Part shown: in pieces, positions 26,212-59,733 of the stretch
How positions within the stretch are numbered: the stretch's first letter is position 1
Layout of the letters: the number at the start of each line of letters is the position of its first letter
NCBI GenBank assembly: GCA_050948665.1
Contig: JBMNEH010000001.1
Coordinates: 1,891,079-1,955,078, forward strand
Length of the DNA: 64,000 bases
Direction of reading: 5' to 3'
Source of the DNA: Christensenellales bacterium
GTDB taxonomy: Bacteria > Bacillota > Clostridia > Christensenellales > UMGS416
Notes under the pieces: model-generated
Databases searched by the model: none
What the model was told of the DNA's origin: nothing
Seen by the model: only the letters and a program-made list of their open reading frames with translations
Program-made: the position numbers and the translations under genes

Positions 26212-26645
26212 TATGCGTCACCACCCACTTCCTGGTCTTTGTTCGCCTTGACAATACGGGTTTTCAAGGGGAGCTTATAAGAAGCCAGGCGAAGGGCCTC
26301 GTACGCATCCTCCTCTGCTACGCCAGCGATCTCAAACATGATACGGCCGGGCTTTACAACGGCAACCCAGTACTCGGGAGAACCCTTGCCGGAACCCATT
26401 CGGGTCTCAGCCGGCTTCTTGGATACGGATTTATGCGGGAAAATCTTGATCCAGACCTTGCCGCCGCGTCTGATGTACCGGGTCATGGCGATACGGGCTG
26501 CCTCGATCTGGTTACTGGTTACCCATGCGGGCGACAAGGCCTCCAAGCCATATTCGCCGTTGGAGACGAAATTGCCGGAATGCGCTCTGCCCTTCATACG
26601 GCCGCGCATTTGCTTGCGGTACTTGACTCTCTTGGGCATTAACAT
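26211..26645 (-). CDS. rplP: 50S ribosomal protein L16
   Basis: [32 protein letters not shown]. Confidence 0.98.
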
Positions 26646-27406
26646 TAGCGTCTTCCTCCTTCCGTATTGGATCGGCGGGCGGGGCGTTGTCGGCGATCAC
26701 GGGCGGGACGACGTTCGGGGCGGGGATCGTTACGCTGCACGGGTGCTTCGGAGCGCATCTGTGCGCGGAAAGTCTTGGGCATGATCTCGCCCTTGTAGAT
26801 CCAAACCTTGCAGCCCAAACGGCCGTAGGTGGTACGGGCTTCCGCAAAGCCGTAGTCGATATCGGCACGAAGCGTCTGCAGAGGGATAGAACCTTCATGA
26901 TAGCTTTCGGTCCGGGCAATCTCCGCGCCGCCGATACGGCCGGAAACAATGCACTTGATGCCCTTCGCACCGGACCTCATCGCCCGCATGATGGATTGCT
27001 TAACGGCACGGCGGAAAGAAATCCGCCGCTCCAGCTGCGCGGCAATGGACTCCGCAACGAGTTGCGCGTCCGCATCAGGCGTTCGTACCTCATAGATATT
27101 CAGAGTGATCTGCAGCTTGAAGCGCGCCTGGAGATCCTTCTTGATTTCCTCGATCCCAACGCCGCCTCTGCCGATAATAATGCCGGGCTTGCCTGCGGTA
27201 ATATTGATCGTAGCCTTTTCAGGCTCGCGGCGCTCGATCTCAATACGAGAAATCCCCGCGTCATACAATTTCTTCTTCAGGTAGATCCGGATTTTGTTAT
27301 CCTGCATCAGGTAATCGGCAAAAACCTTCTTCCCGGCGAACCAACGGGCATCCCAATCCTTAATGATGCCAACACGTGCGCCATGCGGGTGAACTTTCTG
27401 ACCCAT
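26645..27406 (-). CDS. rpsC: 30S ribosomal protein S3
   Basis: [39 protein letters not shown]. Confidence 0.98.
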
Positions 27407-27419
27407 TCCTTATTCCTCC

Positions 27420-27809
27420 TTACTTAGTCGCGGTATCCAGCACAACGGTGATATGGCTGGTACGGTGGAGATAGGGGTGCACCATGGAGCGGGATACGAT
27501 CCGCATGCGCTTCATCTGCGGGCCCTGATTGGCATAAGCCTCGGCCACATACAGGCTGTCGCGGTCCAATTCCAGGTTGTTCTCCGCATTGGCAATTGCG
27601 GAATTCAGCACCTTTTCCACGATGGGAGAAGCAGCTTTTGGCGTAAACTTTAAAATCGCCAACGCCTCGTCAACCTGCTTGCCGCGGATCAGATCCAGTA
27701 CGATACCCACCTTGCGGGAAGAAATTCGCATATACTTTGCGGTGGCTTTGGCCCGCTTGTCGGCGTTCTGCTGGCGAGCGGCGGACTTCTCTCTTATTCT
27801 GGTAGCCAT
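27420..27809 (-). CDS. rplV: 50S ribosomal protein L22 with divergent tunnel hairpin
   Basis: [39 protein letters not shown]; operon position. Confidence 0.97.
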
Positions 27810-27819
27810 CTAATCCTCC

Positions 27820-28095
27820 TTAACCCCTGGTGGTTTTGCTTCCGGCGTGTCCGCGGAAAGTACGGGTGGGAGCAAATTCGCCCAGCTTATGGCCGACCAT
27901 ATCCTCTGTAATATAGACCGGGACATGCTTACGACCGTCATGTACGGCAATAGTGTGCCCTACAAAGTCCGGAAAAATGGTGGAAGAGCGAGACCAAGTC
28001 TTGAGAACCCTCTTCTCATTCTTCTTATTCATATCCTCTATTCGGGCCAGAAGGCGCTTTTCTACATAGGGTCCCTTCTTCAGTGAACGACTCAT
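27820..28095 (-). CDS. rpsS: 30S ribosomal protein S19
   Basis: [32 protein letters not shown]. Confidence 0.98.
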
Positions 28096-28953: not shown

Positions 28954-29247
28954 TTAAGACAGGGTGTCGAAGACCGCAATGGGCTTACTGTCGGGTGACA
29001 GCTTTACAATCGCGCGCTTGGTGGCGGAGGTATAACCCTCGCTGCGACCCATGCGCTTGGGCTTGCCTTTGCGGGTCTGGGTGCAAACTTGGATAACCTT
29101 CACCTTAAAAATCTTCTCCACGGCGGTTTTGATCTCGGTTTTATTGGCCTTGGGTGCCACTTCAAAGGTGTATTTGTGCTCGGCGGCATTTTCATAGCTC
29201 TTTTCGGTACGCACCGGGCGAAGAATTACATCATAGAGGTTTTTCAT
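28954..29247 (-). CDS. rplW: 50S ribosomal protein L23
   Basis: [33 protein letters not shown]. Confidence 0.97.
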
Positions 29248-29867
29248 TCTGCATAGACCTCCTCAATGCGCGCTACGGCTTCCTTTGTGATAACACAGGT
29301 ATCGTGGTTCATCAGGTCATACACATTGATGGTGTTTACCACCGTTGTGTTAACACCGGGTATGTTGCGGGATGCCAGGATGACGTTGGTGTTGGGCTCA
29401 CTGGTCACGATCAGGGCCTTTTTCTCAGCCTTGAGAGCGTCCAGCGCCCGCACCATGTTCTTGGTTTTCGCTTCCATCTCCAGGGCATCTACCACGATGA
29501 ACTGCTGTTCCGCTACCTTGCTGGACAGCGCGCTGTACATCGCCAAACGGCGAACTTTCTTATTTACGGACTTCTTAAACAGGCGGGGTTTGGGCGCAAA
29601 GACAACACCGCCATGCCGCCACTGGGGAGCGCGTGTGGAGCCATGCCGGGCACGGCCCGTGCCCTTCTGACGCCATGGCTTTCTCCCACCGCCGGCAACT
29701 TCACTGCGGGTTAGGGTGGACTTGGTGCCTTGCCTCGCATTTGATAATTGTGCGATAATCACCTGGTGCATGGCGGATTCGTGAATTTCAGCGCCGAAAA
29801 TGTGATCGCTGAGTTCCAACTCCTCCACCTGCTCGCCCCGGATGTTATATACTGCAACCTTAGGCAT
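29244..29867 (-). CDS. rplD: 50S ribosomal protein L4
   Basis: [28 protein letters not shown]. Confidence 0.98.
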
Positions 29868-45073: not shown

Positions 45074-48000
45074 ATGCAAAGTACCATTCATCCGGTCACC
45101 TATGGAAAACGCACACGCATGAGCTTTTCCAAGGTGAAAGAGATCCTGGATATTCCGGATCTAATCGAGGTGCAGAAGAAGTCGTATCAGCATTTTTTGG
45201 ATGTGGGGCTGCGCGAAGCGTTCAATGACATCTCCCCCATTCAGGATTACATAGGCGCCCTAAGCCTGGAGCTGGTTGACTACCATCTGGACAAGGAACC
45301 GAAGTACTCCGTAGAGGAGTGCAAGATTCGCGATGCAACCTGGTCCGCTCCGATGAAAGTCAGAGTGCGGCTGAAGAACAACCTGACCGGGGAAATAAAA
45401 GAGGCTGAGGTCTTCATGGGGGAGTTCCCTTTGATGACTGATCAGGGCACCTTTATCATCAACGGCGCAGAGCGCGTCATCGTTTCCCAACTGGTTCGCT
45501 CTCCCGGTGTGATTTTCGGGACTAGTGTGGATAAGAACGGCAAACTGCTGGCGAATACTACTGTGATCCCCAACCGCGGTGCCTGGCTTGAGTACGAGTC
45601 CGACAGCAATTCCGTACTTTGGACTCGTGTTGACCGTACTCGAAAACAGCCGGCGACTGTGCTGCTCCGCGCCCTGGGCTACGGCACCGACCAGGAGATC
45701 ATCGAACTGTTGGGCGAGGAGGAACATCTTCTGGCTACCTTGGAGCGCGACACCGCGAAGACCAAGAGGGACGGTCTTCTGGAGATTTACCGCAGGCTGC
45801 GTCCCGGCGAGCCTCCCACGGTGGAATCGGCAGAGGCGTTGCTGACCTCACTATTCTTTGACACCCGCCGGTACGATCTGGCGGCCGTAGGCCGGTATAA
45901 AATCAATAAGAAACTGTCGCTAGCAACCCGTATCACCGGACAGACCCTCGCAGAGGATGTGATCAGTCCTTACACGGGCGAAATTGTCGCTGAGGCCGGT
46001 ATCTATGTGGACGAGCAGCTAGCGGCTAGCATACAGCAGTCCGGTGTCCGATCGGTGGATATTGCGCTGGACAATCATGTACTCAGAGTGGTGGGCAACC
46101 AATTCGTAGATGCGCAGCCCTACCTCCCCGAGGGTGTAACCGAAGAAGAGTTGGGCATCACCGAAAAGGTGCATTTCCCCACGCTCATGAGTATATTTGC
46201 CCGGTACAGCGATCCCGCCGAGCTGAAAGAAGCGCTCCGTCTGAACGTGGACGCTCTGGTTCCCAAATATATCTATCGTGATGATATCGTTGCAGCTTTG
46301 AGCTACCAGTTGGGTCTGTACTACGGCATCGGTCGCCGGGATGATATCGACCATCTCGGAAACCGCCGCCTTCGCAGCGTCGGTGAATTGCTGCAGAACC
46401 AGATTCGCATCGGTCTTTCCAGGCTGGAGCGTGTTGTGAAGGAGCGTATGGCCATTCAGGATCTGGATAATCTGACTCCCCAGGCACTGATCAACATCCG
46501 CCCGGTTACCGCGGCGATCAAGGAATTCTTTGGCTCTTCACAGCTGAGCCATTTCATGGATCAGACCAATCCTCTGGCAGAATTGACAAATAAGCGCCGT
46601 CTGTCAGCTTTGGGTCCCGGCGGACTGAACCGTGACAGGGCTACCTTTGATGTCCGGGACGTGCACGCCTCCCATTACGGCCGTATCTGCCCCATCGAAA
46701 CACCTGAAGGCCCTAACATCGGCCTTATCGGCTCCCTCTCCATCTACGCCCGTATTAATAAATACGGCTTTATCGAATCTCCTTACCGGCGTATCGACCC
46801 GGTCACCCATTGTGTGACAAATGAGGTCCGCTATATGTCCGCCGATGAAGAGGATCAATATATTATCGCGCAGGCGAACGAGCCTTTGGACGAGCATGGC
46901 CGCCTGCTCAACGACATGGTCACCGTGCGTGCCCGCGGCGAGATCGTTGAGGTAAACCGTGACCGGGTCGAGTGGATGGACGTGTCACCCCGGCAACTGG
47001 TTTCTGTTGCCACCGCAATGATTCCTTTCCTGGAGAATGACGCTGCCAACCGTGCCCTGATGGGATCCAACATGCAGCGCCAGGCAGTACCCCTCCTTAT
47101 GCCCGAAGCTCCGCTGGTCGGTACCGGCATGGAGTATAAGGCCGCTCTGGATTCCGGCGCTTTGATCATCGCAAGAGAAAATGGCGTCGTAGAAAAGGTG
47201 GATGCTACCTGTATCCAGGTTCGCGAGGAAAGCGGTGAATTATATAAGTATAACCTGTCAAAGTTCGTCCGGTCCAACCAAGGTACCTGCATCAACCACC
47301 ATCCCATTGTTGTGTCGGGAGATAAGGTCACCAAGGGTGATGTGATCGCCGACGGACCTTCCACCGATATGGGCGAGATTTCTCTGGGTCGGAACATATT
47401 GATGGCGTTCATGCCCTGGGAGGGCTACAACTACGAGGATGCCGTGCTGATCAGCGAAAAGCTGGTGAAGGAAGATATCCTTACTTCCATCCACATTGAA
47501 GAATACGAGTGCGAATCCCGGGATACCAAACTGGGACCGGAAGAGATTACCCGGGAAGTACCCAATGTGGGCGAAGACTCCCTGAAGGATTTGAATGAGC
47601 GGGGTATTGTCCGCATTGGCGCCGAAGTCACCGCGGGAGATATTCTGGTAGGCAAGGTCACACCCAAGGGTGAGACCGAACTGAACGCCGAGGAGCGCCT
47701 GCTTCGGGCGATCTTCGGTGAAAAGGTGCGGGAGGTGCGGGATACCTCTCTCCGTGTTCCTCATGGTGAAAGCGGCATCGTTGTGGATGTCAAGGTTTTT
47801 AACCGTGAGAATCACGATGATTTGTCCCCCGGTGTAAACGAGACTGTCCGGGTCTATGTTGCCCAACGGAGGAAAATAAGCGTCGGCGATAAGATGTCCG
47901 GTCGTCACGGCAACAAGGGTGTTATCTCCCGGATACTTCCCGAGCAGGATATGCCTTTCCTTCCGGACGGCACACCCCTTGAAATCGTGCTGAATCCTCT

Positions 48001-52862: not shown

Positions 52863-53243
52863 ATGCCTACCATTAACCAGATCGTGCGTATGGGCAGGGA
52901 GCGGAAGACCTATAAATCCAAGTCCCCTATCCTGAAGTCCAATCCTCAGAAGCGCGGCGTTTGCTTGGTCGTGCGTACTTTGACTCCCAAAAAGCCGAAT
53001 TCCGCACTCCGTAAAATCGCCCGCGTCCGCCTGACAGACGGCTCCGAGGGTACCTGCTATATTCCCGGTATCGGTCATAATTTGCAGGAACACTCTGTCG
53101 TTTTGATTCGCGGCGGTAAAGTGCGCGACCTGCCGGGTGTACGTTACCACATCATCCGCGGTACTTTGGACGCCTCTGGTGTTGCCAACCGTAAGCAGGG
53201 TCGTTCCCGTTACGGCACCAAGCGTGCCAGGAGCACTCGCTAA
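52863..53243 (+). CDS. rpsL: 30S ribosomal protein S12 (divergent)
   Basis: [39 protein letters not shown]; start ATG 52863 behind AAAGGAGG. Confidence 0.98.
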
Positions 53244-57330: not shown

Positions 57331-59733
57331 TTACACCTTTACGGTATGGAATACGGTCTTACAGCCCTTTAACCCCTCCACCGAAGCAGTTACGGTGACC
57401 CTGCCGGGCTTCCCGGTGCTACGAAGCACCATAAATGCCTTCCCCGCGTAGGTCAGGCAGGTGTCAGTACGCAAAGGCTCCGCGTTGCAGGGGTCCGAGG
57501 AATCCACGCCCAATATCTCCGCGGGACCCTTCACCGTGAAGTTTATCCGCAGCCCGTCTGCCGTGGGTACAAAATGACCCCGGCTGTCCAGCACCGTAAA
57601 GGCAATTTGCGCCACGGAACGCCGGTCCGCGGGAATAGCGTCTCCATACACCTCTGCCGTAAGCTGCACGGGCTTCTCGGCGGTATGCATTGTATAGCGG
57701 CAGGCCTCCAACCCGTCATTATACGCCACGACCTCCAGTTTCCCCGGCGCATACGGCACATCCCAGCGCAAGAACATATCATTGGTGGTCGCATAGGGGA
57801 CAGGGCGGTCATAATGCATATACCGCTCGGTCATACCAAATTCCGGGAAACAGGAGGCTTTCCGTCCCAGAGAGCGGCCGTTCAGGAAAAGTTCCGCTTC
57901 CTGACAATTTGTAAAGCACAGTACGGGAATCCATTTTTCCCGCTCGGAAGTGATATTCCAATGGGGGACCAGATATGCCATAGGTTCCTTCGTCCAGGCT
58001 GCCTGATAAAAATAGTAGCCCTCCTTCGGAAAACCACAAATGTCGATTACCCCGGCGCTGCCCACACGAACCGGCCAGCGTGATTCGCCCAGGTAGTCGA
58101 TTCCTGTCCACATATAGTCGCCGATTACCCAGTCCCGTGTCTCGGTAAACTGCAAGAGTTTCCCCACCCGCACGGGCATGCTCCAGTAAGGTGCTGCCCA
58201 GTAGGCATTCTGCCTCTCCATCTCAAGAATCGGTTTGCACCGGTGTCCCCCAAGCCCCAGATTCTCCGTGCCGATTTGCAGCCAATCCGGGTGGGATATC
58301 TTGTCGGCGTCATACATGGTCTCCGCCCGCTCACGCCACCGGGTGGTGTAATTGTAACCCACCAAATCCAACGTCTCCAGAAAAGCCAGCGACGCGGCAT
58401 GCGGCTCAGCGGCCAGCTGATCGTTTGCCTGAGTACAGGGACGTGTACCGTCAAGCTTGCGGCAGATGCGCATCAGCATTTTTGCGGTGTCCGGCCCGTC
58501 TTCCGCTGTCTGGTCGGGCACTTCATTCCCAATAGACCAAATGATGACACTGGGGTGATTCCTGTCCCGCAGCACCATGGTGGCGCAATCCGCCCGTCCG
58601 CAGCGCTGGAAATATTGGGAATATCCCCTGCTCTCGTCGCTGTTTGATCCGGCGGCCTTTGATTTCAAAATACGCCACTCATCAAAGGCTTCGTCCATTA
58701 CATAGATACCCAATTCATCGCAAAGGTCCAGCACTGCCGGATCAGGGGGGTTGTGAGCGCAGCGCAGGCTGTTGGCGCCCATTGCCTTCATCGTTTCCAG
58801 CCGCCTCCTCCAGATTTCGGGAGGCACGGCGGCGCCCACGCATCCTCCATCATGATGAGCGCAAAACCCACGGAGCTTGGTATGCACACCGTTAACAAGC
58901 AGTCCCTTTATCGGATCAAACTCTAAAGAGCGCACGCCAAACCGGATCGTTTCCTCATCGGAAGCTGCCTCCCCCGTCATCAGACGCACCTTTGCCGTAT
59001 ACAACACAGGATTGTCCGCCGACCACAGAAAAGGCTGCTGTATCACGCTTTGAAACACCAGTCGTCCTTTTCTTTCCTTTGGCAGTGCGAGGGTTTCTTT
59101 CAGCACAATGCCGTCAGAGGAAGTGACCGTCAACACCGCTATCCCCTCTGCCCGGGCAGGATTCTCAAAGTCAACCTGCGCCTTCAATACTGCCCGCTCC
59201 TTTGACACGTCGGGTGTTGTAATGAATACGCCGTATTCCGGGATATACGGCGATCCGGTACGCCGAAGCCATACATTCCGGGTGATGCCGGAGCCGGTAT
59301 ACCACCTGGAATTGGGCTGCGCTGAATTGTCCACCCTCACTGTCAGCAGATTTTCCTTTCCGGGCTTTACATACCGGGTTATATCGAAGGAAAAGGGCGT
59401 ATATCCATAAATATGGTTCCCCAAATTCCGCCCGTTTAACCAGACGGTTGTGTTCATATACGCGCCGTCAAAGCGGAGCAGCAGTCTCCCTTCCTCGGGG
59501 TCCTCCGGAACGAACAGCTTTTTATACCAGCCCACGCCTGTACGGGCATATCCGCCCGAACCGGAAGAGGGAGCATCCCGGGTGAAGGGATATTCTACGC
59601 TCCAGTCATGGGGCAGTTGTACCGGCCGGAAGCCTGCGAACTTCCTGTCCCCCGGCGCGCATTCTCCATCCAACCGGAAAAACCAATCAAAGCCAAAAAA
59701 TTTTTCTTTACGGCATGTATTGGAATTTGTCAT
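57331..59733 (-). CDS. Glycoside hydrolase family 2 (beta-galactosidase-like, DUF4982 C-terminus)
   Basis: LPHDWS, RWYTGSGITRNV, HHDGGCVGAA, RCAHNPP, RDRNHPSVIIWSIGNE, WTGIDYLGE. Confidence 0.95.
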   Translation of the reverse strand: MTNSNTCRKEKFFGFDWFFRLDGECAPGDRKFAGFRPVQLPHDWSVEYPFTRDAPSSGSGGYARTGVGWYKKLFVPEDPEEGRLLLRFDGAYMNTTVWLNGRNLGNHIYGYTPFSFDITRYVKPGKENLLTVRVDNSAQPNSRWYTGSGITRNVWLRRTGSPYIPEYGVFITTPDVSKERAVLKAQVDFENPARAEGIAVLTVTSSDGIVLKETLALPKERKGRLVFQSVIQQPFLWSADNPVLYTAKVRLMTGEAASDEETIRFGVRSLEFDPIKGLLVNGVHTKLRGFCAHHDGGCVGAAVPPEIWRRRLETMKAMGANSLRCAHNPPDPAVLDLCDELGIYVMDEAFDEWRILKSKAAGSNSDESRGYSQYFQRCGRADCATMVLRDRNHPSVIIWSIGNEVPDQTAEDGPDTAKMLMRICRKLDGTRPCTQANDQLAAEPHAASLAFLETLDLVGYNYTTRWRERAETMYDADKISHPDWLQIGTENLGLGGHRCKPILEMERQNAYWAAPYWSMPVRVGKLLQFTETRDWVIGDYMWTGIDYLGESRWPVRVGSAGVIDICGFPKEGYYFYQAAWTKEPMAYLVPHWNITSEREKWIPVLCFTNCQEAELFLNGRSLGRKASCFPEFGMTERYMHYDRPVPYATTNDMFLRWDVPYAPGKLEVVAYNDGLEACRYTMHTAEKPVQLTAEVYGDAIPADRRSVAQIAFTVLDSRGHFVPTADGLRINFTVKGPAEILGVDSSDPCNAEPLRTDTCLTYAGKAFMVLRSTGKPGRVTVTASVEGLKGCKTVFHTVKV

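Follow-up and report, generated by a model that had tools for sequence, protein, structure and literature searches.

A clade-level variant of ribosomal protein uL22 that breaks the near-universal glycine of the exit-tunnel hairpin tip

The beta-hairpin of ribosomal protein uL22 forms, together with uL4, the constriction of the ribosomal exit tunnel. We describe a uL22 from a Christensenellales bacterium that is very likely a working protein, the tip of whose hairpin was remodelled by serial in-frame substitutions in the ancestor of four genera and has since been held by purifying selection, with consequences for the tunnel that are predicted. On the sequence comparisons given below, it is a variant form of a familiar protein, shared by a whole clade, that stands out for the loss of a glycine found almost universally.

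Sequence and authenticity of the hairpin tip

We analysed a window of 64,000 nucleotides (the whole stretch of DNA under study), in which rplV occupies 27420..27809 on the minus strand and encodes a uL22 of 129 amino acids. The protein matches the Pfam Ribosomal_L22 family (PF00237, Ribosomal_L22p/L17e) across profile positions 1-103 of 104, with an E-value of 5.6e-38 and a score of 129.7 bits (the curated cut-off is 28 bits). A genome-wide search of the one-contig, 2.38-Mb genome returned this single uL22 match, and no second, canonical copy of rplV was found there. The gene lies directly downstream of rpsS (uS19; 27820..28095, minus) and directly upstream of rpsC (uS3; 26645..27406, minus), and the surrounding open reading frames follow the order uL3-uL4-uL23-uL2-uS19-uL22-uS3-uL16, as in a normal, intact S10 operon. 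The variant-tip protein is very likely the organism's working uL22.

Further along the window, a minus-strand gene for a family 2 glycoside hydrolase of 800 amino acids (beta-galactosidase/glucuronidase-like; 57331-59733) adjoins tuf and is followed by genes for CoaE, signal peptidase II, an RluD-type pseudouridine synthase and DapA; these open reading frames at 57-63 kb do not include yidC.

The long beta-hairpin that lines the exit tunnel comprises residues 86-126 (27432..27554, minus), as judged from DSSP on the model described below and from an ungapped alignment. HMMER aligned residues 19-125 gap-free to the solved uL22 proteins of Listeria, Enterococcus, Staphylococcus and Lactococcus; the hairpin is therefore of standard length, contains no indel, and can be numbered directly after E. 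coli. The ascending-strand anchor, GPQMKRMR (E. coli 79-86; 27501..27524, minus), is conserved and keeps the MKR motif, and the descending-strand anchor, RTSH (E. coli 99-102; 27453..27464, minus), is conserved as well. The translated tip between them corresponds to residues 104-115 (E. coli 87-98; 27465..27500, minus). Its substitutions, in the E. coli numbering used from here on for the tip, are P87I, R88V, A89S, K90R, G91S, R92M, A93V, D94H, R95P, I96Y and K98H, with L97 the same.

The protein thus resembles canonical uL22 (E. coli RplV and the proteins of B. subtilis, Listeria and S. aureus; e.g. 7nhn_V and 3j9w_BV) in its fold, hairpin length, anchors (GP.MKR/RTSH, including K83-R84 and R99-T-S-H) and operon position, and is 52-58% identical to the uL22 of solved Firmicutes ribosomes. 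It differs in that P87-R88-x-x-G91-(R)-A93 has become I-V-S-R-S-M-V and D/N94-x-I96-x-K98 has become H-x-Y-x-H, with two fewer positive charges. Counted from the sequences, the net charge of residues 84-99 is +4 (plus two His), as against about +6 in relatives, E. coli and B. subtilis. All four of the most conserved tip positions are replaced together: isoleucine, valine and valine stand in place of Pro87, Arg88 and Ala93, and serine in place of Gly91. The serine codon is TCC in 5/5 clade genomes, two nucleotides away from the GGN of relatives.

An earlier note on this DNA had placed an indel-free change at 27465-27500, with loss of the Gly, the Pro and two Arg. The coordinates are exact (residues 104-115 map to 27500..27465), the alignment to solved uL22 chains is indeed without gaps, and P87, R88, G91 and R92 are all gone. 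The same note had stated that all 12 tip residues differ from the usual sequence, which is correct relative to B. subtilis (PRAMGRASQINK; 12/12) and incorrect relative to E. coli (PRAKGRADRILK; 11/12, L97 being the same) and to the nearest canonical relatives of the same family (PRSRGMANPILK; only 7/12). Its description of the tip as ‘completely rewritten’ is overstated, since the changes are in-frame point substitutions and five of the 12 residues (S89, R90, M92, P95 and L97) are held in common with canonical-like relatives from genera g4 and g9 (RPRSRGMANPILK).

A block of 12 changed residues between conserved anchors is the classic appearance of a pair of +1/-1 frameshifts, and we therefore checked for a compensated frameshift. 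This was excluded: in a codon alignment S89, R90, M92, P95 and L97 are in register with relatives, the changes are all nucleotide substitutions, and the remaining two reading frames encode unrelated peptides. The earlier note had also raised the prospect of disagreement between the data and the assembly. Contigs from four separate metagenome studies show 0 differences over 27300-27900, and the identity of these four independent assemblies across the tip excludes an assembly error. An 801-bp stretch around rplV was present at 100% of sampled words in at least 14 public metagenome runs, drawn from many studies of anaerobic digesters and bioreactors, and the exact uL22 protein occurs on 34 contigs of a protein collection. 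With the gene single-copy within an intact S10 operon, and no support for an artefact found in the checks made, we dismiss errors in the assembly or consensus, compensated frameshifting and a pseudogene copy as exceedingly improbable sources of the variant.

Rarity, distribution and descent of the variant

We compared the tip with hairpins from a phylum sample of 401 genomes, drawn evenly, of which 263 matched an anchor-only pattern (G79-P80, K83-R84, R99-T-S-H); residues were counted in 150 translated matches, those listed of the 263. Gly91 is present in 149 of these 150 listed hairpins, the sole exception being this genome, while P87 is present in 134, R88 in 140 and A93 in 142. I87, V88 and Y96 are exclusive to this genome among the same 150 listed hairpins. 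Position 93 is less strict, with valine in 4-6 of the 150 listed, and M92 is found throughout the family as well as in 17 of the 150 listed. Loss of R92 is, in these comparisons, not specific to the clade, and A93V also occurs elsewhere.

Another, metagenomic clade of Clostridia, from the same broad group (P0125-P0136), resembles the variant in having a natural A93V and in having lost R92, but differs from it in retaining G91 and the I96/K98 face. The hairpin of that clade reads V-S/A/K-F-R-G-R-G-G-V-D-T-I-I-K-R-T-C-H, with P87 replaced by F, R92 by G and A93 by V.

A wider search gave a similar result for the glycine. Among 150 representatives of 50%-identity clusters (1.84 billion proteins), Gly91 is present in all 84 of 84 clean hairpins. 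Cluster representatives that appeared to lack it proved to be frameshifted or truncated, without the RTSH anchor, and were discounted. The only intact hairpins without Gly91 came from this genome and its own clade. Positions 85, 86, 89, 90, 92 and 94-97 vary widely across bacteria; because residues 85-90 and 94-97 are naturally variable, part of the apparent rewriting of the tip is ordinary drift. What sets this tip apart, as far as the sequences compared here go, is that Gly91 is gone and that all four conserved positions have been replaced together. The tip is thus extremely unusual in broad comparison, which took in some 400 hairpins, and the possibility raised in the earlier note that it might be a common variant is not borne out: the state is rare globally, though fixed and evidently well tolerated in its clade.

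Among 61 relatives, the variant hairpin (R-I-V-S-R-S-M-V-H-[P/A]-Y-x-H-R-[T/L]-S-H) was found in five genomes belonging to four genera (g1, g2, g6 and g8) of one family. A back-translated S-R-S-M-V-H-x-Y-x-H pattern matched 5 of the 401 genomes of an order sample (173 genera, 42 families), which were the same five, with 0 control matches, and a hairpin-restricted search of a collection of 5.8 billion proteins/clusters returned about 12 clusters with the variant tip. In a maximum-likelihood tree built from uS3, uS19 and uL22, with the hairpin columns left out, the five variant genomes form a clade (support 97/91). The monophyly of the clade on this hairpin-free tree indicates a single origin of the variant tip.

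Sequences within the clade have diverged considerably, with uL22 identity between its genera only 72-80% overall. Eight of the 12 tip residues (I87, S89, S91, M92, V93, H94, Y96 and H98) are nonetheless invariant in 12 distinct clade sequences, which conform to the pattern I-[VA]-S-[RK]-S-M-V-H-x-Y-x-H, with variation at positions 88 (V/A), 90 (R/K), 95 and 97. Synonymous codon differences among the five genomes occur at I, V88, R90, V93, H94, Y96 and H98, where the residues themselves are unchanged. Invariance of these eight residues, combined with turnover of synonymous codons, points to purifying selection on the new state and indicates, at the level of sequence, that the tip is being maintained and is not decaying.

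The family contains two further tip states. One is the canonical-like state of g4 and g9 described above. The other (RAGSRGMAKLYKH), found in the sister genera g3, g5 and g7 (L014, L016, L018, L022 and L030), follows the pattern R-A/P-G-S-R-G-M-A-K-L/K-Y-x-H-(Y/R)-T-S-H and looks like an intermediate. These tips are similar to the variant in having lost R88 and, mostly, P87 (replaced by A87; one g5 genome, unlike the other sister-clade tips, retains P87) and in having M92, Y96 and H98, and are different from it in retaining G91 and A93. Tyrosine replaces even the first anchor residue, R99 of RTSH, in g3 and g7. The data do not reject joint monophyly of the intermediate-looking clade with the variant one (delta lnL 0.96, p-AU 0.34), and G88 (GGN) is one nucleotide step from V88 (GTN), whereas R88 (CGC) is two steps from valine. 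Because the grouping is not rejected and the change from G88 to V88 requires a single step, a stepwise route to the variant tip via an intermediate-like state is plausible.

Predicted hairpin structure and the rest of the tunnel wall

We modelled the protein with AF2 using an alignment of 84 sequences. The model has a pLDDT of 93, and DSSP assigns strands at residues 86-105 and 109-126 (protein numbering), indicating an intact hairpin. Target-normalised TM scores against the uL22 of solved ribosomes are 0.87-0.90, and the top 50 Foldseek hits are all uL22 chains. The model predicts a 3-residue turn, S106-R107-S108 (E. coli 89-91; 27486..27494, minus; assigned by DSSP on the AF2 model), as opposed to a 5-residue loop at 105-109 in a control model of a canonical relative (RPRSRGMANPILK) made from the same alignment; this difference is small, and canonical sequences make up most of the alignment behind both models. 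If the models are read literally, the beta-ladder would be one pair longer in the variant, with V88 placed opposite M92 and I87 opposite V93. The models suggest that the four changes at conserved positions amount to the exchange of two cross-strand pairs for beta-branched or hydrophobic residues, and such an exchange could offset the loss of the turn glycine.

The remaining components of the tunnel constriction appear ordinary. The uL4 gene, rplD, lies at 29244..29867 (minus; Pfam PF00573, E 2.9e-75), and its tunnel loop, which the earlier note had called canonical, is confirmed as such at 29675..29637. Variant and non-variant genera have the same loop core; the residues just after it vary (H/Q/V) and do not track the state of uL22, so that no co-variation of uL4 with the uL22 tip was seen in this comparison across genera.

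The genome carries three copies of 23S rRNA outside the window (genome C1:250032-252909, 306502-309379 and 772482-775359), which differ mutually at 2 alignment columns. At and next to the 23S residues that the earlier note had singled out, we found the same nucleotides as in E. coli (745-753, comprising the H35 loop with A751; A1614; and 2057-2062), and the same is true of 2451, 2503-2506, 2585 and 2608-2611; the PTC nucleotides, too, are unchanged. Differences from E. coli at the listed tunnel positions are delta-C490, A792G, U1781C, U1782C and U2586C. C2586 and C1782 are common to relatives that keep the Gly tip, many of them in the order, and U1781C is also found in several non-variant relatives. 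None of 27 23S positions unique to this genome relative to 13 other sequences is a listed tunnel nucleotide, a weak comparison for rRNA co-variation in that a single variant-clade genome has a full 23S sequence. With the uL4 loop and the 23S tunnel nucleotides either unchanged or common to non-variant relatives, the change is confined to the uL22 face of the tunnel.

The rRNA also lacks the usual marks of macrolide resistance. Target-site resistance via 23S was sought at A2058, A2059 and C2611, which are unchanged in all three rrl copies. The genome contains a single RrnaAD-family gene, which is of KsgA type, and hence no erm methyltransferase.

Interpretation and significance

A 2026 bioRxiv preprint describes Gly91 as ‘nearly invariant across bacteria’ and Arg92 as the main determinant of constriction width, proposes that the feature conserved in this region is a dynamic gate, and asks for comparison of phylogenetically diverse ribosomes (10.64898/2026.03.10.710814). 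The arrest peptide SecM hydrogen-bonds to the backbone of K90, G91 and A93, with waters bridging to R92, A751 and A1614 (PMC10951299), and substitutions at Gly91 or Ala93 relieve arrest by SecM or TnaC (PMC3022528, PMC10951299). The alleles named are Gly91Ala and Ala93Ser in the first of these reports, while the second refers to substitutions at Gly91 and Ala93 without specifying residues. In the case of CliM, an arrest peptide from Clostridia, Tyr61 stacks on Arg92 and arrest is lost when the uL22 loop is shortened (PMC13183943). G91D accompanies macrolide (azithromycin) resistance in H. influenzae (PMC9199433), and isogenic P. aeruginosa strains with indels in the uL22 loop have higher macrolide MICs (PMC11484784).

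A literature match for G91S with SecM arrest was sought and none was found, and we do not equate S91 or V93 with any specific published suppressor allele. The variant resembles the E. coli Gly91/Ala93 and H. influenzae G91D mutants in that positions 91 and 93 are changed here too. However, laboratory and clinical uL22 mutants carry single, recent and often costly changes, whereas at least seven substitutions are fixed here across four genera. The E. coli delta-MKR mutant of uL22 is erythromycin-resistant; the MKR motif is intact in the uL22 described here.

We propose that in-frame point substitutions, in the ancestor from which a small group of anaerobic-digester Clostridia descends, remodelled the hairpin tip, turning the P87-R88...G91-x-A93 motif into I-V...S-M-V and the descending strand into H94-x-Y96-x-H98. 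Cross-strand pairs I87/V93 and V88/M92 would thereby replace P87/A93 and R88/R92, giving a hairpin predicted to close on a 3-residue S-R-S turn and to be tighter, more hydrophobic and, probably, less flexible. Such a hairpin would leave the ribosome without two features that define and gate the constriction in model ribosomes, the flexible Gly91 and the mobile side chain of Arg92. Nascent-chain contacts would be expected to change, arrest of the SecM, TnaC or CliM type would fail, and susceptibility to macrolides and streptogramin B may be modestly reduced. A stiffer, less cationic constriction with an altered response to macrolides and arrest peptides is plausible in the light of work on E. 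coli and B. subtilis; these predicted consequences are extrapolated from the genetics of those two species and of H. influenzae. We hold as rather doubtful the bolder form of this argument, in which the constriction would be ‘gate-less’, insensitive to known arrest peptides and less macrolide-sensitive, in a multiply target-resistant lineage without acquired resistance genes. Were it true, a stiff, hydrophobic I-V/M-V clamp and a His-Tyr-His face would stand in for Gly91 and Arg92, in a family already fixed for the RpoB and uS12 states considered below.

The leading competing account, which we regard as possible but not probable, is near-neutral drift of the lineage, by which a tolerant tip would have moved to a functionally equivalent sequence through compensated substitutions, leaving translation and drug response the same in practice. 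E. coli survives deletions of the uL22 loop, and much of the tip (positions 85, 86, 89, 90, 92 and 94-97) varies widely across bacteria. The stepwise character of the change, with an intermediate-looking sister clade whose joint monophyly with the variant is not rejected (p-AU 0.34), and the lack of co-variation in the uL4 loop and rRNA are likewise compatible with drift. However, the jointly changed positions 87, 88, 91 and 93 are the most conserved of the tip (89-99% of the listed phylum hairpins), and the new state is itself strongly conserved in the face of synonymous codon turnover. Furthermore, changing residue 91 or residue 93 by itself produces a measurable phenotype in model organisms (PMC10951299, PMC9199433).

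A second account, adaptive intrinsic resistance, would have the tip selected by tunnel-binding natural products (macrolides, streptogramin B or peptides) in a digester, sediment or gut niche, reflecting a habit of target-site resistance in the family. We consider it rather unlikely. G91 substitutions are associated with macrolide resistance (PMC9199433), changes in the uL22 loop raise macrolide MICs in isogenic strains (PMC11484784), and the genome, with KsgA as its only RrnaAD-family gene, is without an erm-type methyltransferase. Point substitutions at the uL22 tip usually give low-level resistance only, and A2058/A2059 are unmodified in sequence, which both weigh against this account.

The family habit that it invokes concerns two other genes in the window. 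The rifampicin-resistance-determining region of rpoB (46532-46612, plus) has His (CAT) at 46550 and Asn (AAT) at 46589, corresponding to Q513H + H526N. This pair was found in 18 of 18 sampled genomes of the family (g1-g7 and g9, with no rpoB match for g8) and was absent from the 8 other families of the order that were sampled, indicating a state fixed at the level of the family and not a strain mutation. In rpsL (plus; gene start 52863), the motif at 53109-53138 encodes uS12 with K88R (RVRD), which is present in 14 of 14 family genomes with the motif recovered (g1-g8) and in two other families. The PKKPNS motif of uS12 (K43) is canonical, and R86K was seen only in this genome among those sampled. 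We take RpoB Q513H+H526N and uS12 K88R to be classic rifamycin- and streptomycin-type states.

Both states are family-wide, whereas the uL22 state belongs to one subclade; they therefore did not arise together, which counts against adaptive resistance as a shared explanation. Judged by this distribution, the uL22 change came after the RpoB and uS12 states. The two older states lend some colour to the notion of a lineage prone to target-site resistance, and would not amount to proof.

We think it improbable that the tip has instead co-evolved with a clade-specific nascent-chain regulator, such as an arrest peptide or an abundant protein dependent on the constriction. Arrest peptides are patchy in distribution, species-specific and dependent on uL22 tip residues (PMC10987492, PMC13183943, PMC10951299), in keeping with such a history. 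A relaxed KYxIW scan of all six frames of the genome for a CliM-like arrest peptide (K/R-Y/F-x-I/V/L-W near the C-terminus) nevertheless gave nothing plausible, and no candidate partner was found.

On the reading that we favour, of a working uL22 remodelled in a four-genus ancestor and kept by purifying selection, the clade would provide an evolutionarily stable, natural ribosome without Gly91 and Arg92, in which the uL4 and rRNA walls are unchanged and which therefore isolates the contribution of the uL22 tip. As these two residues are regarded as near-invariant determinants of the constriction, the clade may serve as a natural test case for the role of the tunnel ‘gate’. It bears on the extent to which the tip underlies the action of macrolides, the sensing of arrest peptides and the early dynamics of nascent chains, and on whether I87/V93, V88/M92 and H94/Y96/H98 compensate for the loss of the glycine. 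Should the tip prove to have no phenotype, its value would be more modest, in showing the extent to which a ‘universal’ residue may drift. The variant also bears on how common intrinsic target-site resistance may be in uncultured anaerobes.
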